Of a stretch of 64,000 nt of DNA, positions 4,483 to 27,896 are shown one piece after another. The notes beneath the pieces were generated by a model. That model made no database searches. It worked only from the letters and a program-made list of their open reading frames with translations, and was not told the DNA's origin. This stretch comes from an uncultured virus (IMG/VR IMGVR_UViG_3300032030_000077) (taxonomy: Duplodnaviria > Heunggongvirae > Uroviricota > Caudoviricetes): the IMG/VR virus record IMGVR_UViG_3300032030_000077; one strand, 5' to 3'. The position numbers and the translations under genes are program-made. The stretch's first letter is position 1. Every line of letters starts with the position of its first letter.

Positions 4483-4508
4483 CATAAAAGGGCCTGTTTT
4501 TTTTACGA
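4483..4508 (-). promoter_or_regulatory. 26-nt phage promoter motif heading the nuclease-RNAP operon
   Basis: TCGTAAAAAAAACAGGCCCTTTTATG; one of 18 copies of identical length. Confidence 0.75.
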
Positions 4509-4544
4509 TTTGAAGAAATACCTGAAAATATTAATTTTTACCCG

Positions 4545-4811
4545 TGTGTTGTTTTTTTTTTTTTTTTACTTTCTCCTATATTTTTTTATTATTTTTTTAT
4601 AAAAGTATAAAAAAAAAATAACAAAACAACACAAAACCCCGCAAACCCAGTATCCATGCGGGTTTCAGCTGTGTTGTTTTTCAAATAAAAACAACACAAA
4701 AACAACACAAAACAACACAAAACCCCATTTTTTGGCCATTTTTCACCAAAAATATCATTTTCAATTTTCAAGTTTTCAAAAACAACACAAAAACAACACA
4801 AAAACAACACA
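4545..4811. repeat. Iteron-like repeat region, putative replication origin
   Basis: 7 direct AACAACACA copies (4625, 4690, 4701, 4711, 4781, 4792, 4803), 2 inverted copies (4545, 4670), an AT/poly-T tract and an AAACCC-N11-GGGTTT palindrome; non-coding. Confidence 0.6.
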
Positions 4812-4870
4812 AAAAAATAAAAGGAAAAAGGGCCTTTTCGACCCTTAATCCTTGATTAATTACAGGTTAA

Positions 4871-5209
4871 TCACCCCTCGGATTCCTCCAAATCCTCATT
4901 CTTTTTCTCAATTTTGAGGCTGTCATCGTACATCGCAGCCACGAAGCGAGGGTCCTTTCTTCCCTCGAAACCCTTACCTTTAGCAAGGAGATCAAGCTGC
5001 TCGTTCTGCTTACGGGTTGCCTTGCTTGAACTGACTACGCTTACCCCAATCATCAGCGCTAATGGCGCTACGATCGGAAGCATTGCTCCGCCAACTTCTG
5101 CAAGACCATCCTTAAACTTATCGAGCCTTTCCTGTCTCTTATGCTTTCGGTTGATCTTTTCGAGTTCTCTCTGTGCTCTCTCTTCTTCGGTCATCTGCTT
5201 CTTACTCAT
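4871..5209 (-). CDS. Hypothetical membrane-anchored protein
   Basis: ORF with GGAGG RBS and one hydrophobic segment; has its own promoter motif at 5255-5280. Confidence 0.75.
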   Translation of the reverse strand: MSKKQMTEEERAQRELEKINRKHKRQERLDKFKDGLAEVGGAMLPIVAPLALMIGVSVVSSSKATRKQNEQLDLLAKGKGFEGRKDPRFVAAMYDDSLKIEKKNEDLEESEG

Positions 5210-5254
5210 GTTCATTCCTCCTTATTTAGAAAACATGATTGTTTATAAGTTATC

Positions 5255-5280
5255 CATTAAATACCTAATAATTTTTACGA
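5255..5280 (-). promoter_or_regulatory. 26-nt phage promoter motif
   Basis: TCGTAAAAATTATTAGGTATTTAATG. Confidence 0.75.
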
Positions 5281-5284
5281 TTGC

Positions 5285-5323
5285 AAAAAGAAAAGAGCCT
5301 GATCAAATATCAATCAAGCTCTT
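5285..5323 (-). terminator. Intrinsic terminator
   Basis: AAGAGCUUGAU...AUCAGGCUCUU plus U-tract after the 5332-5514 gene. Confidence 0.7.
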
Positions 5324-5331
5324 ACTTTGAA

Positions 5332-5514
5332 TTAAAGTAGGTCTCCAGTTACATATTTCTTTGCCAACTTAACTACCATTCGTCCATCAGCATTGGAAAT
5401 CTCTGCGTGATCAAATCCAGGATGTCTATTAAACCATTTCCCAAATTTATCTGCAGGCATTCCACCTACGAACCAATAATAATAGTTACTGTCGCTCTTA
5501 ACACGTATACCCAT
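5332..5514 (-). CDS. Hypothetical protein
   Basis: 60-aa ORF with AAAGGAGG RBS, flanked by a promoter motif and a terminator. Confidence 0.75.
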   Translation of the reverse strand: MGIRVKSDSNYYYWFVGGMPADKFGKWFNRHPGFDHAEISNADGRMVVKLAKKYVTGDLL

Positions 5515-5534
5515 AGTATACCCTCCTTTCTCTT

Positions 5535-5560
5535 CATTAAATAATATGTATTATTTACGA
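5535..5560 (-). promoter_or_regulatory. 26-nt phage promoter motif
   Basis: TCGTAAATAATACATATTATTTAATG. Confidence 0.75.
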
Positions 5561-5583
5561 TTCAAAAGGAAAAGGGCCAAATA

Positions 5584-5781
5584 TCAGCCCTTAGTTTCCT
5601 CATTACTCCTGTCAGTGAATCCAAGTATCTTGGTTCTTTCCTTTTTGATTACTCCATTCTTAGCAGCTTTTTCGTGTCTTATGGACTTTCTTATGCCATT
5701 TATTATTCCGCTTAAGATCCCTCCAAATACTTCACTCAAAAAGAATGCTAAAGCCAGTTCAAATATAAATTCCCAATTCAT
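5584..5781 (-). CDS. Small membrane protein
   Basis: AGGAGGTG RBS before MNWEF; hydrophobic N-terminus. Confidence 0.7.
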   Translation of the reverse strand: MNWEFIFELALAFFLSEVFGGILSGIINGIRKSIRHEKAAKNGVIKKERTKILGFTDRSNEETKG

Positions 5782-5796
5782 AGTTTTCACCTCCTT

Positions 5797-5822
5797 CATA
5801 AAACGAGATGAATTATTTACGA
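5797..5822 (-). promoter_or_regulatory. 26-nt phage promoter motif
   Basis: TCGTAAATAATTCATCTCGTTTTATG, overlapping the helicase stop. Confidence 0.75.
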
Positions 5823-6968
5823 CATTCCTTTAACCCACGCCGATTCGTTGAAATTCTTTTTATCCGAAAGAGCCCTACTAATAGCCAAATCAATCCCTGC
5901 CCGCGACTTCAAATGGTAAAAATATAAATCGACGAATGGAGTATTAATTCGGTCAATTCGTCCTGCAGCTTGTTCTGTCTGTTTATACGAGTAGCTTTGA
6001 GAGTAGAATACAATCGTGTCGGTAAGAATACAATTCCATCCTTCTGACCCAGAATTGTATTGCACGAGATAGATCCAGCGGTCACTATTAATAGGAATCT
6101 CTTGATGCTTATGTCCATTCCATTCTGCAATTTCATAAGATCCGCCATTAAATCGCCTTTTAATGAGTTCAAGTTCGTAATCGTAATTGTAGAATATAAC
6201 AACTTTTCCCTTCCGTTCCGCAATTTCATATAATGCGTCAAGTCTTGAACGGTCAGAATTAACAATTTTCCTGAGGCAATAGCACATCGCTCCAGCATTT
6301 TGGAATGGTTCTTCTTTAAAGATGTCCCAGCGATCCTTAATAACACGCTTATAATCAGCAAGCGAATACGAACAATAAATATCTTCATGATGTCTTACCG
6401 TCTTCCTTTCAAAGTCCATAGGTACGAGTATCTTTCGTCTCAAGCCATTCAAATATCCAGTGTGAACATAGCCGTCAATTTTAGGAAAGGTAGTATAACG
6501 ATTCCATATAACATGCTTCTGATTGAATTCAGTACGATTCCTAAAATATCCATTAGCTATAAAGATAGGAACATAGTCAGTCCAGCAATCACCAGGTGTA
6601 GCAGATAGCACAATCCATTTGTTAGCCTTAGCAATCTTAAGAAATGCTTTCACCCATGCACCAGTGCCAGTAATACGATCTTCGTCAAATATAAAGAATG
6701 CACCCGTAACTTGCGAGTACTTCTTAATATTATTCCAGCTATCCACTACCTCAGCCTTCATGCGAGGAAAATATAAAATCTCCTGTTCCCATTCCATCTC
6801 ATCACGCTTCTTAGCAGTGGTGATAATGTAAAGCTTAAGATTCGAATGATTCCTATGATAGTATTCCAGCGCAGTCCGGGACTTGCCCGAACCAACGCCA
6901 CCAGCCAGAATACAACCGTTATGCATATTCAGAAGCGCTTTCTTCTGATGTTCGTATAGTTCGGGCAT
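5817..6968 (-). CDS. Superfamily 2 (SNF2/DEAD-like) helicase
   Basis: Q-motif LYEHQ, Walker A GVGSGKS, FDED, LSATPG and QAAGRIDR. Confidence 0.85.
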   Translation of the reverse strand: MPELYEHQKKALLNMHNGCILAGGVGSGKSRTALEYYHRNHSNLKLYIITTAKKRDEMEWEQEILYFPRMKAEVVDSWNNIKKYSQVTGAFFIFDEDRITGTGAWVKAFLKIAKANKWIVLSATPGDCWTDYVPIFIANGYFRNRTEFNQKHVIWNRYTTFPKIDGYVHTGYLNGLRRKILVPMDFERKTVRHHEDIYCSYSLADYKRVIKDRWDIFKEEPFQNAGAMCYCLRKIVNSDRSRLDALYEIAERKGKVVIFYNYDYELELIKRRFNGGSYEIAEWNGHKHQEIPINSDRWIYLVQYNSGSEGWNCILTDTIVFYSQSYSYKQTEQAAGRIDRINTPFVDLYFYHLKSRAGIDLAISRALSDKKNFNESAWVKGMS

Positions 6969-6973
6969 ATGAT

Positions 6974-7165
6974 TTACTCCATTTCTTTCCATTCATCCTT
7001 ATCCAATTTATCCGCTATCACAGCAAGAGACACAGAAATATCAGAAAGCAAACTTGCTATTGTTCCAAGATTCCAACAAATAAGCTCTTCACTTGTGCCT
7101 TTTTCTTTCTTATTCTTTATGATTACTGATAGGAGATCAGCGTTTTCTTTTACTCTATTGCTCAT
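6974..7165 (-). CDS. Hypothetical protein
   Basis: 63-aa ORF with AAAGGAG RBS. Confidence 0.7.
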   Translation of the reverse strand: MSNRVKENADLLSVIIKNKKEKGTSEELICWNLGTIASLLSDISVSLAVIADKLDKDEWKEME

Positions 7166-8277: not shown

Positions 8278-9027
8278 TTATTCCTCCTTCTTTACCTCTT
8301 TTCCTTTTCTCATCCAGCGCTTAAATACATGATAGTAATCTCTTTCGTTACCAAACACCTTCTTACACACAGCCATCGCAAATCCTTTTTCCTTATCGTA
8401 TTCCTCGCCATCCTGAGTTTTTACGACAGTCTTAGTACCGTCCTCCCAGAATATAATAGTAGCCGGATCACGGAAGATCACATCTTTGATCATGTTCGGA
8501 GTAGTGAACACTTTTTCCAGATGCTTGTAAACGGTCTTAGGATCAGTAGTGCTTCTTTTAGGCAGATGGAATGTCTCATCAATTTCAATTTTCTCAGGTT
8601 CTTTATTAATCAATTCAGAAAACCAATCACTAAAAGACTCATAGGCATAAAGTTCCTTCGCTCTGTTATCATGTATTTTAATAACTTCCTGACTGGCATA
8701 TTCCAAGTTAAAATAATCTTTCCATGCGGCAAAGCTATCTGCTATAAGTTTATCAACCATATAGTCCTTCAGGCGCCATGGAATTCTTAAAATATAACTT
8801 GAACTAACAGTGACATAATTCGGTACATACAAAACCCAATTATTACGCAGATAAATATAAAGACTTCTTATTGTATCTATATCGTTTTTCTCGACTAATA
8901 TGTCACCCGGTTTGAATCCGCCACTCCTCTGTTCAAATTTCGAGTGCATATTATTACATGACTTACAGGGTTCATCTTCGTAGTTAGAATTAATATACTT
9001 GCAATATACGCATCTCTTTTCTTCCAT
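8278..9027 (-). CDS. Hypothetical phage protein (N-terminal Cys cluster; C-terminal VIF.DPATI.FW.DGTKTVVK domain)
   Basis: 249-aa ORF; the C-terminal motif is recurrent in tailed phages. Confidence 0.75.
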   Translation of the reverse strand: MEEKRCVYCKYINSNYEDEPCKSCNNMHSKFEQRSGGFKPGDILVEKNDIDTIRSLYIYLRNNWVLYVPNYVTVSSSYILRIPWRLKDYMVDKLIADSFAAWKDYFNLEYASQEVIKIHDNRAKELYAYESFSDWFSELINKEPEKIEIDETFHLPKRSTTDPKTVYKHLEKVFTTPNMIKDVIFRDPATIIFWEDGTKTVVKTQDGEEYDKEKGFAMAVCKKVFGNERDYYHVFKRWMRKGKEVKKEE

Positions 9028-9029
9028 AA

Positions 9030-9635
9030 TTATTTACCTCCTACTTCCTTAGTAAGACCATTAAAAATATCAACCATTGGATAGAATCTCTCAGCCTGCA
9101 TATACTTAGATTCCATATCAGTCTTCCTTGCTACGGGAATATCAATAAGGAACGAATACGAATCGTTAAATACCTCATAAGAAACCTCGTAGTTGCAGTA
9201 GTAAAGAAGATCACTGACAACAGCTTCCTTAATATATTTCTCCATTGATTTTTCGAGGTCAAACAAATCCTTGTCATCCATGGTTTCTATGTTTTTAGCA
9301 ATTTTTCTAGGAACAGATATGCATGAACGTATGTGGTCAATGTTATATGATGCCTCTATGACCATTGGCTTGTCTTTCTGAACTGACTCGCACTGAATCT
9401 TTAACTTCTTGTATTTATCTTCCCAGTAAACTGCATCATCACAGCTTAGGTGCAGTTCTTCCATATATTTCGACACGTCTTTTATAAGCTGATCATTCTC
9501 TTTAAGAATATTCTTATTTGATTCAAACAGCTTTCTGCAGTTTTTCCTCAGATCTAACGAATAGAATATCAACGCTATCAGAATCGCTATTAGTATCAAC
9601 GTTACCGCAACCAGAATACTAAATGTTACTTCCAT
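9030..9635 (-). CDS. Membrane-anchored coiled-coil protein
   Basis: N-terminal transmembrane helix followed by a coiled coil. Confidence 0.75.
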   Translation of the reverse strand: MEVTFSILVAVTLILIAILIALIFYSLDLRKNCRKLFESNKNILKENDQLIKDVSKYMEELHLSCDDAVYWEDKYKKLKIQCESVQKDKPMVIEASYNIDHIRSCISVPRKIAKNIETMDDKDLFDLEKSMEKYIKEAVVSDLLYYCNYEVSYEVFNDSYSFLIDIPVARKTDMESKYMQAERFYPMVDIFNGLTKEVGGK

Positions 9636-9655
9636 AATTATTTACCTCTCTTCTT

Positions 9656-10228
9656 TTATGAAATATCCTTAGGTGAAATACGCCAAGCATTAGGTGAATG
9701 AAGTCTGAATTTACAAGATACATCATTAGCATCTGGATCAAAGAACGGACAATCACCACACAAAGTCCTACTTTCACAGTAATTGGTAATAACACTTGCT
9801 GCAACTGCAACCTGCTGAAACGAAGGCACTTTAGTTGTGTCCTCAGGAATATAAACGCCTGCTGCATTCTTACGAAGATTCAGCTTATCAGGTTCGTCGT
9901 CAATGCCTTTCTTCTCGACTTCCTCCTGAATTCCATATATTGAATTTTCTTTAACGCATTCAATAGCTTTATCTACAAACTCTTCTTTTTTATGTCTCTC
10001 TTCCTCCTTATCCACCAAGTGCTGCAGATACCAAATAGCCTTCTTTACATCCTGAATACCATTCTTCTTTTTCCATCTGAGAATATACTTAATCGCATTA
10101 GCCGTACACACAGCTTCTGTACCTGACAAGTCCTTAGTGAACTCGTCAATAATATCAATCACCTCATACTTACCGGACTTATAATGATCCGGATGACTCA
10201 CCATTTTATCTTCTGTTTCGTAGCTCAT
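9656..10228 (-). CDS. DUF3310-domain protein
   Basis: VSHPDHY..G..EVIDII...NAIKYILRW..KNG.QDV.KA.WYL. Confidence 0.85.
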   Translation of the reverse strand: MSYETEDKMVSHPDHYKSGKYEVIDIIDEFTKDLSGTEAVCTANAIKYILRWKKKNGIQDVKKAIWYLQHLVDKEEERHKKEEFVDKAIECVKENSIYGIQEEVEKKGIDDEPDKLNLRKNAAGVYIPEDTTKVPSFQQVAVAASVITNYCESRTLCGDCPFFDPDANDVSCKFRLHSPNAWRISPKDIS

Positions 10229-10539
10229 TAGTTTTCCTCGCTTTCTGCCTTGTAAAAATCACAATGGTTTCTAACTATTCCTGATTGAAATATACAGTTC
10301 TTAGTTGTGCAAGAATCACATAGGTTTTTATTAGCAACCACCACGTCCTCACTTTCTTTCTTAATCTCAGCCTTTGTCATTTGTTCGGTTAAAAGACGAT
10401 ATAAGATGTCTGCCTGCTCTCCTAATTCCATTTTCAACACAATGGTTTTTTCTCCACATTTCCGAGCAACGCACAATCCTGATCCATCATTAAATCCGCT
10501 GTCAAAGGAAACTGTCAATAAATCTGATGTATATTTCAT
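10228..10539 (-). CDS. Hypothetical protein with C-terminal Cys cluster
   Basis: 103-aa ORF with coupled start/stop. Confidence 0.7.
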   Translation of the reverse strand: MKYTSDLLTVSFDSGFNDGSGLCVARKCGEKTIVLKMELGEQADILYRLLTEQMTKAEIKKESEDVVVANKNLCDSCTTKNCIFQSGIVRNHCDFYKAESEEN

Positions 10540-10694
10540 TCCTCTTCATCCTTTTCTGCAACAATATAATATCTTTCTGTTAAAGTATCTGACTCAATCA
10601 CTAATACAAATCCTGCCTCTTCAAGCGCAGTTGCCACCTTATCGTAATAATCTGCTAATTTTCTTACAGTTAATTTTGCTAACTCCCTATTCAT
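10536..10694 (-). CDS. Small hypothetical protein (52 aa, not in ORF track)
   Basis: MNRELAKLTV...KDEEE; GGAGG RBS; fills the gap and overlaps the next start (ATGA). Confidence 0.6.
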   Translation of the reverse strand: MNRELAKLTVRKLADYYDKVATALEEAGFVLVIESDTLTERYYIVAEKDEEE

Positions 10695-10883
10695 TCACTC
10701 ACCTCCAATTCTTTTATTCCATGCTTCTATAACTTCTTCAAAACCTAACTGTAAGTTATCGCCATAAGAGCATCCACATTCTTCATTATCACATTCAACG
10801 GAATAAAACTCATATCCATTAACGCCCCAAACGCTTGCCGTGCTACCACAGAAAGGGCAAGGCTTTAATTTAATATCATTCAT
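10695..10883 (-). CDS. Lar-family restriction alleviation-like zinc-finger protein
   Basis: LKPCPFCG...VEC....CG...AWNKR. Confidence 0.8.
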   Translation of the reverse strand: MNDIKLKPCPFCGSTASVWGVNGYEFYSVECDNEECGCSYGDNLQLGFEEVIEAWNKRIGGE

Positions 10884-11100
10884 CAGCACTCACCTCCACT
10901 TCTACTCTATCCATATCGATCCTGTGCTTGCATACCGGACATGTGACAAAACGAGTATATCTTGCTCCAAGAGAAAATATAGGATACTCCTTCTCCAACT
11001 CTATGTCCTGATAGTTGTAAGAAAATACAGACTTACACTCATCACAAGTCATCTCTATAGGATCTACCATTGTGTTCTTAATTATCGTCTTCATCGTCAA
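10876..11100 (-). CDS. Zinc-ribbon protein
   Basis: CDEC...CPVC. Confidence 0.7.
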   Translation of the reverse strand: MTMKTIIKNTMVDPIEMTCDECKSVFSYNYQDIELEKEYPIFSLGARYTRFVTCPVCKHRIDMDRVEVEVSADE

Positions 11101-11329
11101 TACCCCTTTCTGTATGTGAAATATACTTTTCCATAATCATATCCCATTCCTCAGGATGCTCGGCTCTATAAGTCGTCAAAGCCCTAGAAAGCAATTCCTT
11201 AGGAATGATCTGCTGAATTACTTCCTCGCAATAAGGATGGATCATTTCAAATATAAATTTCTCGTAGTCCTCGGTTACTTTATGCCTAAATGTCTCTATA
11301 TGATTGAACACTTCGTCAAAGCTCGCCAT
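11078..11329 (-). CDS. Hypothetical protein
   Basis: 83-aa ORF overlapping its neighbours in the operon. Confidence 0.65.
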   Translation of the reverse strand: MASFDEVFNHIETFRHKVTEDYEKFIFEMIHPYCEEVIQQIIPKELLSRALTTYRAEHPEEWDMIMEKYISHTERGIDDEDDN

Positions 11330-11600
11330 TCATTTCCCCTTTCTCCTCCTCATCCAATTCATAAAATACCTTCATCATTTCAGCTCCGTCTTCATGACCC
11401 TGTATATAAAAGTCTTTAACTGTATCAAACTGATTATTTGTTATCACAAGCTCTATCTCTGATTGCCCGTTATCCAAAACCTTCCAGATAGACTTACAAT
11501 CTGAGCAAATATAATACACATGATTACCGTACTGTCGCTTATGCATCATCGCTTTGCATTCTGGACAAATCGGTACGTTCTGACTTATTGTGGTCAGCAT
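11316..11600 (-). CDS. Zinc-ribbon protein
   Basis: CPEC...CSDC; AGGAGG RBS. Confidence 0.7.
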   Translation of the reverse strand: MLTTISQNVPICPECKAMMHKRQYGNHVYYICSDCKSIWKVLDNGQSEIELVITNNQFDTVKDFYIQGHEDGAEMMKVFYELDEEEKGEMNGEL

Positions 11601-11811
11601 TTTTTACCTCCTTTATAAATTCTTTTATGAACTCCTCAAATGCTATTTCATTATCTATCGCTTCAGGAGGAACTTTCTTGCAACGTCTTAAGTTTTTCTC
11701 ATGATATAAATAGACTCCACTACTATCAATAAGTATATAAATGCCGTAAGCCGTAGCCAGACCTTTTAACGTACGCATAAGTCGTTCAAATCCTGTCATG
11801 TTCATTTCCAC
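11539..11811 (-). CDS. Hypothetical protein
   Basis: 90-aa ORF. Confidence 0.6.
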   Translation of the reverse strand: MEMNMTGFERLMRTLKGLATAYGIYILIDSSGVYLYHEKNLRRCKKVPPEAIDNEIAFEEFIKEFIKEVKNADHNKSERTDLSRMQSDDA

Positions 11812-12173
11812 ACGTACCCCTTTCCTTCAACACATTCGATAATATTTTTAGTAGTAGTGTTTGAAGTATGTTTCACATTCTCAACCTTCTTTCGATAATG
11901 TTCTCTCAGCATTTCAACAGCCTCAAGAATATCATTTTCATTCTTCACCAAGACCTTGCCATTACTAGATACGGTCATATATTGATCAGGTATACCAGTC
12001 ATCCAAGTAGGGTGATTATCTGGGAAAAATGTTCCGTTCTTAATACCATGTCTCACACGGATCTCATTCTTATATCGGTATACCAGGTAGCATTCAACTC
12101 CATGTCTTTTACATTCGTCCTTCCAACTTGTTCTCTTACATCCTTTAGCATTTCTATGTCCTGGATAAATCAT
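11802..12173 (-). CDS. Hypothetical protein
   Basis: 123-aa ORF. Confidence 0.65.
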   Translation of the reverse strand: MIYPGHRNAKGCKRTSWKDECKRHGVECYLVYRYKNEIRVRHGIKNGTFFPDNHPTWMTGIPDQYMTVSSNGKVLVKNENDILEAVEMLREHYRKKVENVKHTSNTTTKNIIECVEGKGYVWK

Positions 12174-12252
12174 ATGCGCCCCTTTCCTTCAAAAAGAATA
12201 AGAGAGCCTGATAAATATCAAGCCCTCTTGATTCATTACAAATCGTCTTTAC

Positions 12253-12960: not shown

Positions 12961-12973
12961 GTTATTAACCCTC

Positions 12974-20214: not shown

Positions 20215-20228
20215 AAATATAAACCTCC

Positions 20229-20903
20229 TTAAACATTATCTATAGGCATAGCTTTAGGAAGAACCAGAAGCCATCCTCCAGATACTCTTTGTACTGTTGC
20301 TCCATTCAGACTTGACCAGCCATAGTCATAATCTGTAGGATTTCCTGTGAGACCAACCAGATCATACAGATCCTGTATACGCACAACAGAATATCTATCG
20401 ATTATTCCCTGCATACTCACAAGTACAGATTCAGCGTCAGCTCTTGCCTTTGCTGATCCACCCTGATTTGCAGGATAATCCTCGATCACGATATCGTCAT
20501 AAGAATACTTGCTCGCTGCCTGTGAAGGAGCCGTACTGGGAGCTATTCTTGACGATGATACTCTGTTGTAATCGTACTGCTGACTTACTCTCGATCTTGG
20601 TGCAAATGAATTGCTATTTGATGTACGACGATAAGTTCCACCGCCGCCTCTCCAGAAGTCAACAATATTCATCACCGTGTCAAATATCCCGTTCTTAAGT
20701 GCCGGCATTATTATGTCGGTGAGCATGTACTCCTTTGCATCAGACACATCTTCAGGAATGAATGTCTGTCTGAACAGTTTTCCGATTGTCAGACGATGCT
20801 TAACTTTCGACTGAACAACCGGCTTATTTACAACTCGTGTATCCTCTTTCTTTTCTAATGCTGTCTTTGAAGCATCAGAATTATTGGGTATTCTCGTTTC
20901 CAT
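20229..20903 (-). CDS. Hypothetical protein
   Basis: 224-aa ORF; C-terminal DLYDLVG...D..YGW motif. Confidence 0.8.
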   Translation of the reverse strand: METRIPNNSDASKTALEKKEDTRVVNKPVVQSKVKHRLTIGKLFRQTFIPEDVSDAKEYMLTDIIMPALKNGIFDTVMNIVDFWRGGGGTYRRTSNSNSFAPRSRVSQQYDYNRVSSSRIAPSTAPSQAASKYSYDDIVIEDYPANQGGSAKARADAESVLVSMQGIIDRYSVVRIQDLYDLVGLTGNPTDYDYGWSSLNGATVQRVSGGWLLVLPKAMPIDNV

Positions 20904-20964
20904 TTAAATATCCTTTCGAAAAGCAAAGAGGACTAGATTTCTCTAATCCTCTTTTAGTCGTTGA

Positions 20965-21273
20965 TTATTCAGTTGTAGTAATTTCCTCAGCCTGAGCCTC
21001 AGCAATTACATTGTCTGCTGCAGAGTCATCAGATTCGATCATATTGATCTCGTCTGAGGAATCTGACTGGGAATCAGCCTCCTTCTTTGCTGCTCCGCCA
21101 AGTGCAATACCTCCAACAAATGCCAGTGCTCCAACAACACCGACAATTATCTTTGTCTTGTGCTTAGCGAAGAAGTCCTTTACCGGATGCTTCTCTACCA
21201 TATCATTTGCCTCCTCGTTCTGATCAATTTCCTGATCTGTGTTCTGTCCAAGTTCAGTGTAATTTTCGCTCAT
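20965..21273 (-). CDS. Acidic single-pass membrane protein in its own cassette
   Basis: Transmembrane segment IIVGVVGALAFVGGIALG; promoter at 21315-21340; terminator at about 20919-20953. Confidence 0.8.
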   Translation of the reverse strand: MSENYTELGQNTDQEIDQNEEANDMVEKHPVKDFFAKHKTKIIVGVVGALAFVGGIALGGAAKKEADSQSDSSDEINMIESDDSAADNVIAEAQAEEITTTE

Positions 21274-21314
21274 TCTATTTTCCTCCTATGAACTGTTAAT
21301 AGTTACAACGTACC

Positions 21315-21340
21315 CATTAAATAATCTGTATTTTTTACGA
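21315..21340 (-). promoter_or_regulatory. 26-nt phage promoter motif
   Basis: TCGTAAAAAATACAGATTATTTAATG. Confidence 0.75.
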
Positions 21341-22123
21341 ATACTCTCTGTATTTGGGCGCCTTAGGATCTACTTCAGGCCTGAAATATCCACAAACCTC
21401 GCCTGTTTCGATCTCAAAGTAATCAAATATAAGTTCCGGTGCATCTTTACATACCTTATTTACATCTTCGAGCCTCCATTCCATAGCTCCAGTAGTTCTG
21501 GGATCAAGCTTTGGAAGCTGAAAACACTCAAGATAGTCATTGATGGTCACACTTTGCCGATTCCACAGATCCCTATTGAATACATTCAAACCTCTATCTA
21601 TAAAGTCCCTGGAAGCTCTCAAATATGTATTTGAATAAGGTTCATAATATAAAGTATTACCGGTTCTCGTATTGACCACATTGCCTTCAACATAAGGAGT
21701 TTCCTTGAGATTGTTCTCAGCAACCTTATGCTGTATCTTTTTATACTCTTTTTCGCCCACAACCTCGCGGGTTGCTTCGTCCATTTTCTGAGACGCTTCC
21801 TCCGTTACTTTGCAGGCTGTTAAGAGTGCTGCGGTTCTACCATTTTCGATCTTCCTGGCCCCAAGAATACATACAATTGACAGGATGGTTATTACTACAG
21901 GGAAAATATAAAACTTCCATGTATGCTTAACTACCTCTTTTCCTGTCAGTTTTTCTCCTTTTTCTTCCTCCGCCTGCGCAAGAACCTCTAATGCCTTAGG
22001 CGTGTTCTTAACAGCGGATACAGTAGAGGATATAAAACCGACAATTCCGAATGCTGTAAGTATCTCAGGACTATGCTCGACAATTATTTTGCCGATTTTC
22101 AATAGTCCTTTTGCTATTTTCAT
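21335..22123 (-). CDS. DUF6353-like protein (paralog 2)
   Basis: SPEILTAFGIVGFISSTVSAVKNTPKA. Confidence 0.75.
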   Translation of the reverse strand: MKIAKGLLKIGKIIVEHSPEILTAFGIVGFISSTVSAVKNTPKALEVLAQAEEEKGEKLTGKEVVKHTWKFYIFPVVITILSIVCILGARKIENGRTAALLTACKVTEEASQKMDEATREVVGEKEYKKIQHKVAENNLKETPYVEGNVVNTRTGNTLYYEPYSNTYLRASRDFIDRGLNVFNRDLWNRQSVTINDYLECFQLPKLDPRTTGAMEWRLEDVNKVCKDAPELIFDYFEIETGEVCGYFRPEVDPKAPKYREYS

Positions 22124-22131
22124 GTCTCCTC

Positions 22132-22944
22132 CTACTCATAAATTGGCGATAAATATCCACAGTCTTTTGCAACCTTCTCAGTTAACGGCCAAATACTGTA
22201 TTCGATTACTCGAGTTTCTCTTCCGCCGTTAATTTCCCAGTTCGTTGGAGCATTTTCTGTTCCAGGAACATTGATCTGCTTGAAGTCTATGTCGAGCCAG
22301 TTATAACCTCCCTGGTGCTCGAGTATGTAGTCTTCTGTCCACACAGATTTGGCTGCTTTAGGACTATTTTTTCTTACCTGAGGGAAAATATCACCAAGTT
22401 TTATGCCCTCGTTGCTCAAATGAAGTACTTTATTAGCCTCACATTTAGCGTCGTAGAACTCAGCCATTGTCATTTGAAATGCTGTTTCGCTTAACGGCTC
22501 AAAAAACCAATACTTATTCTCGTCGTGCAAACATGCTTCACGTTCTTCCGCAATTTCTTCCTTGACCTGACTGTCCAGAAGCTTAGCTTTTTCCTCGCCT
22601 ATAATCTCTTTGATCTTGTCTTTATGCTTTGCATATGCTGCTGACAGACCTGCTGTGGTGACTATTAGACCCTTAATCTGCCTCTGAGACACTGCACATG
22701 ACGCTATACCGGTTCCTACAGCCAGTGCAAGCGTTGCAGCCGTAGGCCAGTATACCTGAGCATAATCCTTGACCTTTTCTTTAGTTGTGAGATCAGTCTC
22801 ACCTGTAGGATCGATCTCTAATCTGTGATCATCTAACAGTTTTACGGCCTTAGGTGTCTCGTCAATTGCTAAAAATACAGAGGCAATTGTAGACACGACC
22901 GATATTCCAGTTAATATGATCGGTAATGCACCTTTAAAACCCAT
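22132..22944 (-). CDS. DUF6353-like protein (paralog 3)
   Basis: PIILTGISVVSTIASVFLAIDETPKA. Confidence 0.75.
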   Translation of the reverse strand: MGFKGALPIILTGISVVSTIASVFLAIDETPKAVKLLDDHRLEIDPTGETDLTTKEKVKDYAQVYWPTAATLALAVGTGIASCAVSQRQIKGLIVTTAGLSAAYAKHKDKIKEIIGEEKAKLLDSQVKEEIAEEREACLHDENKYWFFEPLSETAFQMTMAEFYDAKCEANKVLHLSNEGIKLGDIFPQVRKNSPKAAKSVWTEDYILEHQGGYNWLDIDFKQINVPGTENAPTNWEINGGRETRVIEYSIWPLTEKVAKDCGYLSPIYE

Positions 22945-23007
22945 TTTTTCTCCTTTCTAAATATAAAAGACTAAGAGAGCCTGATTTCTCAAGCCCTCTC
23001 GGTTTGG

Positions 23008-23421
23008 TTACTTAACCATTTTGGATATCAAGCCCGGAATTGTTCTTGACACCTGTGATGCGAACATATTACCACCCTTCTCAAAGTCCATTGCGGTGGC
23101 TGTCAGCTTTACTGCTGTGTTCGTACGGTACACATCCGTAGCCGCGTTCGCTGCGTTTCCTGCGAAACGATTGATCTCAGAACCTATTCCAAGCTTCAAT
23201 TCATTCTCACGTACCTTGAGCTCTCTTTCTTTAAGCTCCAGTTCACGTTCATGAGTTGAAATCATGTCTAGGGTCTTTAACAACTCGTTCACATTCTTGC
23301 GCTTTTCAAACGCGTTCTTCGTTGTGGGTTCCGTATCGACGCTGTCTGTAAAGTGATCGTCAATGCAAGACTCCAAGTCGTGAATGATAACATCTTTTAA
23401 CAGTTGTTTTATTCCTTCCAT
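23008..23421 (-). CDS. Coiled-coil hypothetical protein in its own cassette
   Basis: GGAGG RBS; promoter variant at 23453-23478; terminator at about 22965-23000. Confidence 0.75.
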   Translation of the reverse strand: MEGIKQLLKDVIIHDLESCIDDHFTDSVDTEPTTKNAFEKRKNVNELLKTLDMISTHERELELKERELKVRENELKLGIGSEINRFAGNAANAATDVYRTNTAVKLTATAMDFEKGGNMFASQVSRTIPGLISKMVK

Positions 23422-23452
23422 TGTTGTCCCTCCATAACTGATTAATAGTTAC

Positions 23453-23478
23453 CATAATACAACCGGAATTATTTACGT
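23453..23478 (-). promoter_or_regulatory. 26-nt phage promoter motif (ACG variant)
   Basis: ACGTAAATAATTCCGGTTGTATTATG. Confidence 0.6.
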
Positions 23479-23705
23479 TCTTTGTCGCCTGAATCCTTGT
23501 CTTTAAACGGTTCTTTTACCACTTTTATGACAACAAAATTGAACTTAAGCCACTCGTCAAGATCAAAGCGAAGAACCGGCTTAATATCATCAGGATTTCT
23601 ATCATCAAGCCAGAATTCTCCGTTAGTCTTAAAAAACCTGTAAATGAACAAGATGTTAAGAACAATCGACAGAGACAGAGCAAATATCAAGAAAGCTGTC
23701 AGCAT
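23469..23705 (-). CDS. Small membrane protein
   Basis: N-terminal transmembrane helix; AGGAGG RBS. Confidence 0.7.
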   Translation of the reverse strand: MLTAFLIFALSLSIVLNILFIYRFFKTNGEFWLDDRNPDDIKPVLRFDLDEWLKFNFVVIKVVKEPFKDKDSGDKERK

Positions 23706-24343
23706 GCTGTTTCCTCCTTCTTTTCTACATCATAATTAGGAAGCTTGATCTTATAGCAGCCAGCCTTTTTGCTATAGAATATCTTTGCTCCCTCGGTATA
23801 CTTAGGATGACTGTCGATCATTTTCTGAGCTTCTTTCTCAGTTGCAAAACGCATGAGATTGAACTTCATCCAGCGTCCTTCTCTAGCCTGAGTCTTCAAC
23901 AGATTGATCATGTCATCGCCGAAGGGATAATTATGATTATTAGACAGACAATCCATGTAAGACTCGTACTGCTTGCTGTAGAAGAAATTTTTAGCAGTGT
24001 TATAATGCATGGAATTCGGTCTTCCTGTATCCTTATTAAGAATATAAGTAGTCTCTGCCTCACCGAAATCCTTAACTGCACTGCTGATTATTGCTGCGAT
24101 TAGTGTCATTCCTCCGTCACGATCGTATTTGCAGTCTTCGCTGACATTTTCGTACTCCATTACTATGTCAGCAACACCGCCTTTTCCGTAAAGATAGACG
24201 TCCTCGAATGCAGTTCTTTCAACGCCTATTGTTTCGATAGTCTCTCTTGATACTTCAGGATGATCTGCCAAATATAAATCTGCAGCTATATCCCACATCG
24301 ACTTACCCATCTTTCTCTCAGCAATCACTGTCGCTATATTCAT
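23699..24343 (-). CDS. Hypothetical protein
   Basis: 214-aa ORF with GAGGAG RBS. Confidence 0.75.
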   Translation of the reverse strand: MNIATVIAERKMGKSMWDIAADLYLADHPEVSRETIETIGVERTAFEDVYLYGKGGVADIVMEYENVSEDCKYDRDGGMTLIAAIISSAVKDFGEAETTYILNKDTGRPNSMHYNTAKNFFYSKQYESYMDCLSNNHNYPFGDDMINLLKTQAREGRWMKFNLMRFATEKEAQKMIDSHPKYTEGAKIFYSKKAGCYKIKLPNYDVEKKEETAC

Positions 24344-24515
24344 TCTTTATCTCCTCTAAATTCTTATTCTCTGCACACTTTATACACAAATAGTACTTAG
24401 AACCGTTCTTTTCCTTGGTGTAGAACGATCTAAATATCTTTCTACTCATTCCTTCATACGGCTGATCAAATAACTTAATTCCGCATTGAGCACAGCATTC
24501 AGTTATCTGCTCCAT
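24318..24515 (-). CDS. Small zinc-finger protein
   Basis: CAQC...CIKC; start moved to MEQITE after AGGAGG. Confidence 0.65.
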   Translation of the reverse strand: MEQITECCAQCGIKLFDQPYEGMSRKIFRSFYTKEKNGSKYYLCIKCAENKNLEEIKNEYSDSDC

Positions 24516-24642
24516 TTTTCTCCTCCTTACGGCATCCTGCTCTCCACAGAAGTGCTTCCTCCTTGTGCCCATCAGACTTTCCGACCTTATAAGACACATA
24601 AATAGCAACCATGATTGCAACTCCACTAAATACTCTTCCCAT
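24499..24642 (-). CDS. Small membrane peptide (47 aa, not in ORF track)
   Basis: MGRVFSGVAIMVAIYVSYKVG...; AGGAGG RBS. Confidence 0.6.
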   Translation of the reverse strand: MGRVFSGVAIMVAIYVSYKVGKSDGHKEEALLWRAGCRKEEKNGADN

Positions 24643-24907
24643 ACTTAAGTTCCTCCTTCTTAATTAAGTTCTTGCTTATTGTTACCTTTGCAGTAGGCTG
24701 ATAGCCCAATTCCTTCTTAACCTGCCAAACCATATTTGAGTATGCTTTAGCAAGACTAACTGCCTGTGTCTTTAACTTGACATGCGCTATGGTCTTATCA
24801 AAAATGAAAACCGGCCCGTGATAGCTGTACGTGTCTTTGTACTTACTATCAGGAACCGGCGTGAACGATAACTGACCGTTCTTCTCGCGATATAGATTTT
24901 CCTGCAT
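24626..24907 (-). CDS. Hypothetical protein
   Basis: 93-aa ORF with GAGGTG RBS. Confidence 0.7.
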   Translation of the reverse strand: MQENLYREKNGQLSFTPVPDSKYKDTYSYHGPVFIFDKTIAHVKLKTQAVSLAKAYSNMVWQVKKELGYQPTAKVTISKNLIKKEELKYGKSI

Positions 24908-24910
24908 ATC

Positions 24911-25414
24911 TCACCTCATATTAGAATATCCAGCAGCCTTAGAGTTCTTGAAGTTCGGTTTCTCAAGGCATATACATTCGTTACAAGTACCTGCATAATA
25001 CTTATGAACCCAGATCTCTTCATTGAGACCAAGTTCATTCACAGCCGTTTGCCATCTGGTCTTAAAGCCGTCAATGCTTTTTACTTTCTTACCGGATGAA
25101 AGATCGTCTTCCATCTTAAAATCGATACTCTTACCTTTTCCGAGATAAAAATCTTCTACTGCATCGATATACCACTTGAGATCATATCCTCTTCCTGTCA
25201 AAGAACCTCTATAACGACGCTTCTTAGGCTCTTCTGGAATAGATGGATGCATGGCAGCTACGTCAACCATAACTGCATCGACCTTGGTAGGTTCCTTATA
25301 CTTATCAAGAAGCCATACAAAAATATCAATTGCATTAGCTTCCTTTGCCGCACCTACGAGATTGTTGTAACTGCTCTCACCAAATGTCTCTACGAACTTC
25401 TCTTTGTTTGTCAT
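24911..25414 (-). CDS. Hypothetical protein, first gene of the operon under promoter 25482-25507
   Basis: 167-aa ORF; its 5' UTR is the apparent target of the 261-388 RNA. Confidence 0.75.
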   Translation of the reverse strand: MTNKEKFVETFGESSYNNLVGAAKEANAIDIFVWLLDKYKEPTKVDAVMVDVAAMHPSIPEEPKKRRYRGSLTGRGYDLKWYIDAVEDFYLGKGKSIDFKMEDDLSSGKKVKSIDGFKTRWQTAVNELGLNEEIWVHKYYAGTCNECICLEKPNFKNSKAAGYSNMR

Positions 25415-25447
25415 GTTTTACCCTCTTTTCTTAATGTGTGTGTTTGC

Positions 25448-25481
25448 AAAAAGAAATGAAGAGCAGAATTAATCTACTCTC
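25448..25481 (-). terminator. Promoter-proximal hairpin/attenuator
   Basis: GAGAGUAGA-UUAAU-UCUGCUCUU then AUUUCUUUUU, directly after the promoter motif. Confidence 0.5.
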
Positions 25482-25493
25482 CATTACATAACA

Positions 25494-25778
25494 TTATTTT
25501 TTTACGACTGCTTTTACTATGCTGTATATAGCAATAGGCCAAATCGCTCCACCAATAAAACTTACTCCGAATAAAAACATAGCTATTTTTGCATCGTTAT
25601 GTCCAAACATTTCTTCAATATCTTCACGTACGTCTTTTGCTGAATCGCCGTCGAATACAGGGTTAGGCATAATGTCTAATACACTGTTTCTATAAGCGCT
25701 CCAATAAAATGCGCAAACGTTAGTACAGAAATATAAAGCTCCAATAACAACGTATGCAAATACTAAATATTTAATCAT
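25494..25778 (-). CDS. Early membrane protein (2 TM)
   Basis: Two hydrophobic helices; own promoter motif. Confidence 0.75.
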   Translation of the reverse strand: MIKYLVFAYVVIGALYFCTNVCAFYWSAYRNSVLDIMPNPVFDGDSAKDVREDIEEMFGHNDAKIAMFLFGVSFIGGAIWPIAIYSIVKAVVKK

Positions 25779-25886
25779 TTATTGTCCTCTCTTTCTGTGC
25801 TGATTAATAGCCTTCATTAAAGAGTCAAAATTAATTGCGAAAAAGACAAGAGACCAACAACTTGTTAGTCTCTCATCTTACATACT

Positions 25887-26009
25887 TCATAGCTTTTTAA
25901 TGATGGCGATCAATCCGCCAATGCCCAGCAATATCGCTATTATTGGTATTAAATATATCGCCAAAAATAGAAATATAACCCCGGCCATTTGAGCTATTGC
26001 TTCCCACAT
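25887..26009 (-). CDS. Early hydrophobic peptide (40 aa, not in ORF track)
   Basis: MWEAIAQMAGVIFLFLAIYLIPIIAILLGIGGLIAIIKKL; AAAGGAGG RBS; promoter and terminator. Confidence 0.75.
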   Translation of the reverse strand: MWEAIAQMAGVIFLFLAIYLIPIIAILLGIGGLIAIIKKL

Positions 26010-26085
26010 TAAATCCTCCTTTCGTATCCATTAAAGAAATATAATTCTTTACGAAAAGATTTAAAGAGCAAGACCAATGTTCGAT

Positions 26086-26226
26086 TTAGTCTTCCTCGTC
26101 TTCTTTATGTGCTTTCCTGTTAAAACTCTCTCTATAGTTATCATCGTCATGAATCTCATCGAGCATCTGCTCAATTGTCTTTCCACGATAAAGTTCCATT
26201 TCAATTGTGTCGTAAGTATTTGCCAT
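26086..26226 (-). CDS. Early acidic peptide (46 aa, not in ORF track)
   Basis: MANTYDTIEMELYRGK...KEDEED; GGAGG RBS. Confidence 0.7.
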   Translation of the reverse strand: MANTYDTIEMELYRGKTIEQMLDEIHDDDNYRESFNRKAHKEDEED

Positions 26227-26333
26227 AATAGTTTCCTCCGTAAATATAAATTTAGTTACGGCCTTACTCTTTATCCTCTATTCCTCCTTCATTAAATAGT
26301 TAATAAAAATTACGAAAAAGAGAAGAGAGCCAA

Positions 26334-26483
26334 TTAAGACTCTCTCCACATACGTTTCATATCCTCGAGTTCTCTTTCACGTCTTTTACCCTCTTCCATA
26401 CCTTTGGATTCTCCAAACGCATATCCAAGACCAAAGATCACTATTGAAAATACTCCTAATACGATAGTATATGCTAATGTCAT
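26334..26483 (-). CDS. Early single-pass membrane peptide (49 aa, not in ORF track)
   Basis: MTLAYTIVLGVFSIVIFGLGYAFG...; GAGGAG RBS. Confidence 0.75.
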   Translation of the reverse strand: MTLAYTIVLGVFSIVIFGLGYAFGESKGMEEGKRRERELEDMKRMWRES

Positions 26484-26582
26484 ATTAATCTCCTCTCTTA
26501 TCAGAGCACTCATTGCTCTTCATAATATGAGTACATTTTTTTACGAAAAGAAAAACAGGGAGACTTAAAATATAATTTTGTC

Positions 26583-26897
26583 TCAAACTGCTTTACCTTC
26601 AAGTGCATCTATCTCTGTTTCAATCTGATCGAATATATCGACTACGTCGAATTCCCAGTCATTTAAAAACGTTTCACCTACTGGAATTCCAACAGTGAAG
26701 AATACCATGTGATTCTTAGTGTCATACAAGCATCCGGTGTGTCCACCGAAGTTGTAAAACTCGTTGTAATCACGAAGTCTCTTCCTGATTTCATCCATTA
26801 CATGAATGTTCGTCGACTTGACAATAAACGTTACGTCATAATACTCGGTTCCATTTCTATCGATTTTTGTTCTGATGTAATCACAAGTTCTTTCCAT
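26583..26897 (-). CDS. Early hypothetical protein
   Basis: 104-aa ORF; AAAGGA RBS; own promoter and terminator. Confidence 0.75.
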   Translation of the reverse strand: MERTCDYIRTKIDRNGTEYYDVTFIVKSTNIHVMDEIRKRLRDYNEFYNFGGHTGCLYDTKNHMVFFTVGIPVGETFLNDWEFDVVDIFDQIETEIDALEGKAV

Positions 26898-26966
26898 AAT
26901 TTGTCCTTTCCGTCTCCCTTCATAAAAGAAGAAAATATAATTACGAAAAGAAAAGAGGACTAAACG

Positions 26967-27074
26967 TCAGTCCTCATTTAAATGTCTGAATACATATTTG
27001 ATTGCTCCTACGACAATTGCTATCGTAGAAACAACGATCAATACAAATCCGACCATTCCAAATATAAGTGCCAT
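26967..27074 (-). CDS. Early hydrophobic peptide (35 aa, not in ORF track)
   Basis: MALIFGMVGFVLIVVSTIAIVVGAIKYVFRHLNED; AAAGGAGG RBS. Confidence 0.75.
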   Translation of the reverse strand: MALIFGMVGFVLIVVSTIAIVVGAIKYVFRHLNED

Positions 27075-27124
27075 AAAGCGCCTCCTTTCTTCTTCATTAA
27101 AGGATGCAAAAATTTTACGACAAA

Positions 27125-27214
27125 TAAAAAAGAGACTTAGGTTATCTGCTAACGCCCACGAGGGGCTCTTCTTCGAGTTTTCACTCTCAGTGCTTCAAAG
27201 ACTTCCATATCTCT
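27125..27214 (-). ncRNA. Putative structured small RNA C (~90 nt)
   Basis: Between a promoter motif and a U-tract, with no RBS; 5'/3' closing stem AGAGAU/GUCUCU enclosing three hairpins. Confidence 0.65.
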
Positions 27215-27243
27215 CATTAAAGGATGCAAAAATTTTACGACAT

Positions 27244-27371
27244 AAAAAAAGTACGAGAATGACGATCGTCGTTATTTTATCATGGGCCAATTGTCAGGAT
27301 TTCTCCTCAGCCACGATCCCGATTAGTTCCCACTTCTGGGTCTTCAAACTTCACATACCGTTCACTCTCTT
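27244..27371 (-). ncRNA. Putative structured small RNA B (~125 nt)
   Basis: Between a promoter motif and a U7 tract; closing stem GAGAGUGA(A)CGGU/AUCGUCAUUCUC; inner stems CCC/GGG, AUCGUGG/CCAUGAU and GGA-GAAA-UCC. Confidence 0.65.
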
Positions 27372-27397
27372 CATTAAAGGATGCATAAATTTTACGA

Positions 27398-27554
27398 AAA
27401 AGAAAAGGAGTAAGAATAACTTGCATACTATTTCGCGCATATACAAACCCGTCTCTCGAACTACTTGCCGTATAGGTCTCTTGGGTATTAATTCCAAGAT
27501 AGCGCGTGCAAGAAACCTAGACTTTTATCGTCTAAGTTTTACCTCTTACTCTCT
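27398..27554 (-). ncRNA. Putative structured small RNA A (~155 nt)
   Basis: Closing stem GAGUAAGAG/UUCUUACUC; stems AAACUUAGAC/GUCUAGGUUU, CUUGCA/UGCAAG, CGCGC/GCGCG and UCUUGG/CCAAGA; no RBS or ORF. Confidence 0.7.
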
Positions 27555-27598
27555 CATTAAATAACTCATAAATTTTACGATTAAAAAAGGAAGAGGGC

Positions 27599-27832
27599 TT
27601 ATTCAGCCCTATCCTCCTTTTGTTCCTTTGTTTCTTCTTCGTCTTTAAACAAGTTCCCGATTGTTTTCTCCATAACTTTCGGCATTGCTTCGTCTAAATA
27701 CCAGTCAAGGACGTTTCCAAACATTTCCTTGTATCCAACAAATATCTTGAATACAACGAATGCTATGGTAATAAGTCCCATGGCACAAAAAGTTGCAGCC
27801 AAAGCTATTAAAGCTAATAATAGTTCGCTCAT
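27599..27832 (-). CDS. Early single-pass membrane protein (first early cassette)
   Basis: GGAGG RBS before MSELLL; transmembrane helix. Confidence 0.75.
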   Translation of the reverse strand: MSELLLALIALAATFCAMGLITIAFVVFKIFVGYKEMFGNVLDWYLDEAMPKVMEKTIGNLFKDEEETKEQKEDRAE

Positions 27833-27896
27833 ATTTTTTACCTCCATAAAAACAAACAATAGTTACCATAATACTATTGAATATTTTTACGAAGTT

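Follow-up and report, generated by a model that had tools for sequence, protein, structure and literature searches.

Among phage-encoded RNA polymerases that consist of a single polypeptide with a two-barrel fold, YonO of the Bacillus prophage SPbeta was reported to transcribe late genes from a single promoter, according to the accessible part of Forrest et al. 2017 (PMC5467207). In the portion available of Ruprich-Robert and Thuriaux 2010 (PMC2919709), the proteins of phage 1706 were recognized as one of the YonO-like families. Koert et al. (bioRxiv 10.1101/842583) describe, again in the accessible part, a protein flanked by helix-turn-helix (HTH) domains in the genomes of Lactococcus, Faecalibacterium and actinophages for which RNA polymerase activity was deemed possible; that text concerns the protein only and the word 'promoter' is absent from it. 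Here we examine a 64,000-nt stretch of DNA, further called the window, of an uncultured Caudoviricetes virus (IMG/VR IMGVR_UViG_3300032030_000077), which encodes a protein of 974 amino acids (aa) from the phage 1706 family and contains 18 copies of a 26-nt motif. On comparative and geometric evidence, these motifs are probably the cognate promoters of the phage's own single-chain two-barrel RNA polymerase, because a motif with the same geometry accompanies the polymerase gene in phages whose hosts are widely different bacteria. The protein family has been described before; the promoter, its specificity variants and the terminator-like leader directly after its +1 position were not found in the literature searched.

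The polymerase gene occupies positions 678-3602 of the minus strand. Profile comparison aligned residues 18-972 of its product with positions 10-908 (of 909) of phrog_4291 (E = 0), and the metal-binding DxDGD loop is present as GADFDGDD (aa 536-543, with DFDGD at aa 538-542) and invariant across an alignment of 21 sequences. Pfam detected HTH domains at aa 54-130 and a Sigma70_r4/HTH_23 domain at aa 932-970. In an AlphaFold model (mean predicted local distance difference test, pLDDT, 75.4) the closest Foldseek matches were QDE-1 chains, with E-values of 5.4e-5 to 1e-3 and a probability of 1.00 at template modelling (TM) scores of only 0.19-0.30, followed by plant RDR2 and then by the largest subunits of archaeal and eukaryotic RNA polymerases; a sequence search of the PDB gave no matches. 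Identity to the proteins of 1706, P078, FP_oengus and the actinophages is ca. 34-43% over 97% of the length, and the protein of the 1706/FP_oengus/actinophage supercluster shares with it a full-length identity of ca. 42%, HTH domains at both ends and the DxDGD loop. Homologs were found by tblastn in 250 phage records, including cultured phages of Lactococcus, Faecalibacterium, Arthrobacter, Gordonia and Streptomyces, and metagenomic homologs number at least 7998 at E <= 1e-20. By sequence and modelled fold, the gene product is thus classed as a YonO/QDE-1-like two-barrel RNA polymerase of the phage 1706 family with predicted enzyme activity. Among the 90 open reading frames (ORFs) of the window that were scanned it is the only polymerase-like or sigma-like one, a point in favour of its being the reader of the motifs: no second polymerase or sigma factor was present, no ORF, the 974-aa one included, carried a Pfam domain of T7-type polymerases, the single activator candidate was one small RHH protein, and the DxDGD loop was absent from the tape measure and the other large window proteins.

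An earlier reading of the window, made from the sequence only, had described 18 minus-strand copies of a motif of fixed length, with a spacer of 13 rather than ca. 17 nt and no copy in the structural half, and this description agrees with what was found. A direct check of the 64 kb located the motif at all 18 left coordinates, with the consensus T-C-G-T-A-A-A-W-A-W-T-T-N4-T-Y-M-T-t-T-W-A-T-G plus a purine (in short TCGTAA-N13-TtTWAT-G-R) and, in the 18 aligned sites, 13 nt between TCGTAA and the hexamer at positions 20-25. That every copy begins with TCGTAA proved exact for 16 of them only; copy 23453 opens with ACGTAA and copy 25815 with TCGCAA. Positions C2, G3, A5, A6, T20, T22, A24, T25 and G26 are constant in the whole set, and position 27 is always a purine (11 times A, 7 times G). 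A matrix scan recovered just these sites, with scores of 24.9-36.8 bits as compared to less than 12 bits for the rest of both strands and a top score of 13.7 bits in 50 block shuffles of the window; since the matrix was trained on the same 18 sites, the gap in scores is more informative than the scores themselves. With another pseudocount the next-best match reached 5.8 bits on the coding strand and the maximum on the plus strand was 6.0 bits. The window accordingly holds exactly 18 motifs by matrix scan, none of them on the plus strand and none, with either pseudocount, in the structural half (28-64 kb); a search for late promoters revealed no weaker copy in 28-64 kb or in 1-700. The TCGTAA word by itself occurs 52 times (25.9 +/- 5.4 expected). 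All genes of the window lie on the minus strand, so that every motif copy is on the gene strand.

Related phages were represented by six named records (five complete genomes and one unverified scaffold), of which FP_oengus was covered to 50 kb of its 58 kb, and by 80 viral contigs. FP_oengus harbors 13 gene-strand copies of the form xCGCGAAAAAT..CAG..CTTTATG-G in the same 26-nt register; these are found in early and middle genes, one of them ahead of the endonuclease-exonuclease-polymerase operon, and none at 32-50 kb. Six sites (xCGCGTAAAWTACACGGGC-TATAATG-A) were found in Arthrobacter phage Circum, seven (TCGCA...ATTACAC...TATAATG-AGACCCC) in Gordonia phage Kenosha, two (TCGCACGTTTTACATGGCT-TATAATG) in Streptomyces phage Bilo, two in MT835495 and nine in Lactococcus phage P078, where they read TTTTACATACCC-TATAATG-A and lack the CG. 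Common to the relatives are CG at positions 2-3 (except in P078), an AT-rich box at 20-25 and G at 26. A loose pattern for this layout (CG at 2-3, T22, ATG at 24-26 and a purine at 27) matched 122 times on the gene strand and 4 times on the opposite strand in 1.58 Mb. Two candidates were discarded: TTTATGG as a common 3' word was not enriched in five relatives, their actual 3' box being TATAATG or TATTATG, and a look-alike downstream of the FP_oengus polymerase gene is an arm of a long inverted repeat that is off register by 1 nt.

The copy that heads the polymerase operon, at 4483 in the window, is conserved in relatives. It was found in all 69 viral contigs with sufficient upstream DNA, 888-1271 nt before the protein match, and corresponds to xCGCGAAAAAAACATGCCCTTTTATG at 17-25 of 25 positions, as compared to 13-18 for a reverse-strand control. 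Among the named phages, Circum has a clear copy and Bilo a weaker one, and none is evident in P078 and Kenosha. Taken with the other sites in the named phages, the motif thus accompanies the polymerase gene across host phyla. The window copy at 4483 departs from the consensus of these operon copies solely at positions 4, 5 and 15. Positions 2-5 are CGCG in relatives and CGTA in the 18 window copies, one of which has CGCA; the CGTA type also occurs at the only site that was seen in the closest contig (polymerase identity 81%). A change of the upstream box that is common to all copies of one genome points to a phage-encoded reader and is what would be expected of one that co-evolves with its sites.

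The start of transcription was proposed to lie at the motif edge, on the ground that RNA stems begin 0-3 nt after the final G. This ground did not hold, since stems with dG <= -8 follow 4 of the 18 sites (22%) and 24% of 400 random G-purine positions, but the position itself is backed by ribosome-binding sites that adjoin G26. Of 102 unique sites, a set made up of the pattern-fitting ones of the window and those of relatives, 90 have a ribosome-binding site, a start codon and an ORF of 30 codons or more in the next 150 nt, and at ten sites, upstream of seven different genes with ORFs of at least 63 codons, the ribosome-binding site begins 0-3 nt past G26. (A script had flagged 17 sites with a binding site up to 6 nt from G26; on inspection 10 were real, 6 were leader hairpins and 1 was a false start.) The window site 5797 belongs to these ten, with AAGGAGG beginning 1 nt past G26. 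In FP_oengus, ARAGORN detected a tRNA-like gene with an odd anticodon, unannotated in the record, that starts 1 nt past G26 (2935-3006); no tRNA was found in the window. Sigma-70 promoters start 6-9 nt downstream of the -10 hexamer, and a start at that distance from the hexamer at 20-25 would cut off these ribosome-binding sites and the tRNA-like gene. From this we infer a start at the motif edge, G26.

The window sites also show little of what marks sigma-70 recognition. Sigma-70-like hexamer pairs are not enriched (25 versus 24.1 expected; 30 versus 44.6), at none of the 18 sites does the second hexamer of the sigma-70 scan match at positions 20-25, the expected -35 positions are not conserved and a TTGACA-like box is absent 16-18 nt upstream. 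The second base of the hexamer is A at only 4 sites, while the sixth is T at all 18. The two-block layout, the TATAAT-like 3' box and the C-terminal HTH domain matching Sigma70_r4 do resemble sigma-70/sigma-A systems, but the spacer is 13 instead of 16-18 nt and the start would lie right after the AT-rich box. These features support the classification of the motif as a promoter not of the sigma-70 type, in line with the original description.

Transcribed phage sequence offers a weak hint in the same direction. Pieces nearly identical to the phage occur in gut metatranscriptome assemblies of sheep and cattle from two studies (positions 8500-28499 of the window), in the form of Logan assembled contigs, in which uncovered stretches are uninformative. 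Gene-upstream contig ends were found at 21302 (followed by adapter letters), 25802/25803 (in two studies), 26906, 23430 (in two studies) and 27841, that is 13, 12-13, 15, 23 and 26 nt past G26 of five sites; they hint at a start near the motif and do not separate G26 from a few bases later. Because of its occurrence in these assemblies the host is probably a ruminant gut bacterium, and the strong AGGAGG ribosome sites suggest a Firmicute.

In the order of transcription the window comprises the structural genes, a terminator (28025-28011), 11 motif copies, the middle and replication genes, and the polymerase operon. The 11 copies are packed in 2.5 kb (27892-25482) ahead of very small genes. The first (27867-27892, minus strand as all that follow) has ORF 27599-27847 downstream and the second (27555-27580) comes just after a hairpin with a T-run at 27610-27594. 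The copies at 27372-27397, 27215-27240, 26521-26546 and 26029-26054 are supported by the coordinate check and the matrix, and the one at 27095-27120 precedes a small ORF (26967-27074). Copy 26921-26946 lies between a hairpin with T-run (26975-26955) and ORF 26583-26897, copy 26290-26315 follows another such hairpin (26347-26322), and the TCGCAA variant at 25815-25840 is placed between the hairpin 25875-25847 and ORF 25494-25778. The last of the cluster, 25482-25507, stands where the small early genes give way to the middle genes. Single copies are distributed over the middle and replication genes. The ACGTAA variant at 23453-23478 overlaps the stop of ORF 23469-23705 and has ORF 23008-23421 downstream, whereas in the copies at 21315-21340, 12519-12544 and 5797-5822 the TAA of TCGTAA doubles as the stop codon of the upstream gene (ORF 21335-22123, ORF 12539-12778 and the helicase ORF 5817-6992, respectively). 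Copies 5535-5560 and 5255-5280 again follow hairpins with T-runs (5592-5572 and 5323-5293), which brings the number of copies with a strict element of this kind directly upstream to 6 of 18. The final copy, 4483-4508, is a distinct subtype (AAAAAACAGGCCCTTTTATG) that is conserved in relatives, and it heads an operon of an HNH-type endonuclease gene (phrog_93, 4136-4468), a RecB-like exonuclease gene (phrog_3953, 3604-4164), both identified by PHROG matches, and the polymerase gene. The motif-free structural half encodes the portal, a protease-capsid fusion, a 2675-aa tape measure, tail proteins, an HNH protein, the large terminase and a CHAP lysin.

Two of the window promoters are directly followed by a terminator-like leader, for which we required, in the initial 60 nt of the transcript, a G+C-containing hairpin and then a T-run. 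At 4483 a hairpin of 30 nt (dG -12.2) starts from G26 and is followed by a T-run (4443-4483, minus strand), an architecture that is conserved in relatives, and folding revealed a similar element directly after the promoter at 25482 (25446-25485, hairpin 25485-25455), whose stem also starts at G26. Such a hairpin and T-run follow 26 of the 31 polymerase-operon promoters of relatives that were classed by the pattern, and 6 more outside the pattern, as compared to 2 of the 65 remaining promoters and 10 of 400 random positions. The stem sequences vary between clades; RNAalifold found no pairs in 24 polymerase-operon leaders, the hairpins of which differ in length and are misaligned by MAFFT, and each sequence was folded separately instead. 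The element is probably an attenuator controlling entry into the polymerase operon and, at 25482, the early-to-middle step. A copy of the motif before the polymerase operon had been taken to indicate autoregulation; the operon copy, its association with the gene and its non-sigma-70 character stood, but autoregulation is complicated by the terminator-like hairpin right after the +1 position and by the source of the first polymerase.

In the mechanism that we propose, one or more of the HTH domains (two N-terminal and one C-terminal that is similar to sigma region 4) would dock on the duplex upstream box TCGTAAA at positions 1-7 (-25 to -19), the AT-rich box at positions 20-25 (-6 to -1) would melt, and RNA would begin at the invariant G26 and run into a purine-rich stretch. 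The promoters would drive the small early genes, which have their own terminators, several middle and replication operons, and the endonuclease-exonuclease-polymerase operon. The hairpin and T-run at 25482 would gate the passage from early to middle genes, and those at 4483 would gate the polymerase and possibly the late genes.

Several observations speak against such an assignment of the motifs to the 974-aa enzyme. YonO, the one relative that has been tested, is a late-gene enzyme, and here the late structural module has no motif copy. Since copies of the motif stand ahead of the earliest genes and of the gene for the polymerase, the first polymerase molecules must have another source. The actinophage and Lactococcus relatives carry a perfect TATAAT, followed by G, as their 3' box, which host sigma factors are able to read, and the early genes each end in an ordinary hairpin and T-run, a signal for bacterial polymerase. 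In addition, no covariation between HTH residues and the upstream box was found among 31 polymerases (one of them, L102, has only gaps at the HTH columns), where the association is at the level of clades and identical HTH types occur with both CGCG and CGCA boxes; no paper showing activity of the polymerase family was found in the literature searched; and the RNA data are assembled contigs, which are unable to show transcription starts. The points on YonO, the motif-free late module, the earliest genes, the TATAAT box and the intrinsic terminators would all suit an early and middle promoter that is read by the host RNA polymerase, alone or with a phage factor at the upstream box, with the phage polymerase confined to late genes and to another promoter. 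We consider this unlikely. A hexamer similar to -35 is missing 16-18 nt upstream and the sigma-70 scan calls none of the sites in this register, A is rare in the window at the second hexamer position, which is a key one, and where ribosome-binding sites or the tRNA-like gene follow within 0-3 nt of G26 a start 6-9 nt past the hexamer is excluded. Moreover, one architecture is maintained in hosts of two phyla although host promoters differ, the upstream box varies in concert within a phage lineage, and apart from the small RHH protein no sigma factor or activator is available as the additional factor.

The concerted change of the upstream box indicates a binder encoded by the phage and is silent on what this binder does, and most database records label the 974-aa protein merely as 'HTH DNA-binding domain protein'. 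Both would be accommodated if the motif were an operator at which the protein acts as a regulator, rather than the place where it starts RNA. The catalytic DFDGD loop and the two-barrel fold are kept, however, the invariant part of the motif extends to the AT-rich box and to a G exactly at the required transcript start, and the copies directly behind terminators stand where a promoter is needed, with no other conserved promoter-like element beside the sites; we therefore hold an operator function to be quite improbable. A conserved sequence that ends exactly at the needed mature 5' ends is also compatible with cleavage, that is with an RNA processing site or another non-promoter signal that generates 5' ends beside ribosome-binding sites. 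This has hardly any likelihood in our view: little upstream RNA would arrive at the copies, at least 6 of 18, that are directly behind a hairpin and T-run, the motif has no RNA structure of its own, an Rfam search gave no matches, and the upstream half is similar to an HTH target and dissimilar to a nuclease site. Cognate promoters of the 974-aa polymerase thus remain the reading that we prefer.

T7-type promoters are rigid elements of ca. 23-26 nt, repeated on one strand, with a duplex recognition part upstream, an AT-rich stretch directly before the +1 G and a purine-rich start, and lineage-specific base changes are common to the copies in a genome. The window motif is similar in its rigidity and single orientation, its upstream box, its AT stretch, the G with following purines and the genome-wide base changes. 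The enzymes, in contrast, are unrelated, the 974-aa protein having a two-barrel fold like QDE-1; recognition is proposed to be by fused HTH domains instead of the specificity loop of T7; and the motif of this phage also covers the earliest genes and the polymerase gene. Like YonO, the protein is a single-chain two-barrel phage RNA polymerase, but the 18 motif copies that accompany it all lie in early and middle regions, the late module being free of them, and the part of Forrest et al. 2017 (PMC5467207) available makes no mention of HTH domains for YonO. That a phage polymerase has promoters of its own is a known principle from T7; here it would be realized with the cellular two-barrel fold in one chain with built-in sigma-like HTH domains. 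The 26-nt promoter, its CGCG and CGTA variants and the conserved terminator-like leader at +1 make the finding and opening of a promoter without a separate sigma factor testable for a minimal two-barrel polymerase, and the promoter/polymerase pair could find use as a small orthogonal system for transcription in Gram-positive bacteria.

In case of lambda, promoter PR' is immediately followed by the terminator tR', and antitermination by Q opens the entrance to the late block. The polymerase operon of the window is likewise preceded by a promoter with an immediate terminator-like element, but the hairpin starts at +1, the whole leader is ca. 40 nt and no antiterminator was identified. Phage N4 and crAss-like phages deliver very large RNA polymerases, encoded in the structural module, with the virion; N4 uses hairpin promoters, and the polymerase of crAss-like phages is also QDE-1-like. 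Delivery with the DNA would solve the same early-gene problem for the phage studied here, although packaging is hinted at only by a weak DUF7211-like tag.

Two sources of the first polymerase can be envisaged. Upstream of the motif at 4483 there is a non-coding stretch of ca. 360 nt (4509-4870, minus strand) with many direct TGTGTTGTTTT repeats, inverted AAAACAACAC and long A and T runs. It contains a weak sigma-70-like pair (TTGAAA-17-GATATT, 4779-4751) and could be an origin, a regulatory platform or a host-dependent start of the polymerase operon. The alternative, which we regard as a lead, is an enzyme that is brought in with the DNA. The N-terminal peptide of the polymerase (LYLEHYGVKRRSGRFPWGSGENPYQ, 3534-3602, minus strand) is invariant in the alignment and disordered in the model, and it resembles the DUF7211 tag YLEHHG[VI]LGMKWG, of which it may be a variant; the Pfam match is a weak one, at 12.9 bits where the cut-off is 27 (E 0.074). 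The tag, in the extended form YLEHHG[VI]LGMKWG[VI]RR[YF]QN, occurs once in a 214-aa protein (63340-63984) and twice in a 757-aa protein (59644-61917), both encoded on the minus strand before the portal gene, and the protease-capsid fusion (56182-58362, minus strand) has LEH sites in its spacer, at aa 164-166 and 300-302. By sequence resemblance, tags and LEH sites may constitute a code for capsid loading and cleavage; the literature searched contained no paper on DUF7211 and no virion proteomics of relatives.

For the synthesis of late RNA, the lack of motifs in the late module and the absence of a detectable terminator between the polymerase gene and the window edge suggest a possible route, in which transcription from the polymerase-operon promoter would continue past the joined cos site. 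A G/C-rich inverted repeat is found at positions 1-45 of the window (minus strand, TATAGGGGGGG...AAAATC.CACCCCC); in relatives, CATCGCGGCGG and a GATATTT word come after it. The repeat is kept downstream of the polymerase gene, ca. 260-480 nt past it, in 7 of the 12 contigs inspected (L030, L055, L068, L077, L097, L103 and L049). It may represent the cos region, because the polymerase gene is located at the right genome end in actinophage relatives. Terminator-like hairpins occur within the motif-free late module (minus strand) after the capsid gene (56135-56164), after the tape measure gene (47076-47105) and before the tail chaperone gene (62468-62491), and a late transcript would need to read through them.

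Combined, these elements would give a scenario in which the host polymerase is not needed for any early or middle transcription. Capsid loading of the HTH-guided two-barrel polymerase would depend on its N-terminal LEH-YG...WGSG peptide, as a variant of the tag in the two head-module proteins that also resembles the LEH sites of the capsid-precursor spacer. Once injected, the enzyme would immediately use the 26-nt promoters. The polymerase-operon promoter, followed at +1 by the leader terminator, would act as a gated late promoter, and read-through across the joined cos site would turn the motif-free structural module into one very long operon. As a whole we regard this scenario as doubtful.

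Independent of the promoters, the window contains short words with a strong strand polarity. Counted over the whole window, TGATATTT occurs 37 times on the gene strand and is absent from the other, and the corresponding numbers are 36 and 1 for TTATATTT and 110 and 11 for GATATT (examples on the minus strand at 58164, 37879, 27935, 12776 and 4756). For the more general [TG]ATATT the gene strand has 182 occurrences, which fall in every codon frame (46/75/48) and, in 13 cases, between genes, in early and late regions alike. In the terminator hairpins 12200-12229, 5293-5323 and 5572-5592 (minus strand), which are ahead of motif copies, TGATATTT is located in or across the loops. Similar polarity was observed in FP_oengus (GATATTT, 42 versus 1) and Kenosha (CATATT, 73 versus 2); MT835495, P078, Circum and Bilo do not show it. 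The words may be primase sites, some other polar signal in the DNA or a signal at the RNA level. Finally, the middle region harbors three paralogous DUF6353 genes (19249-20214, 21335-22123 and 22132-22944, minus strand), and three are also present in FP_oengus.

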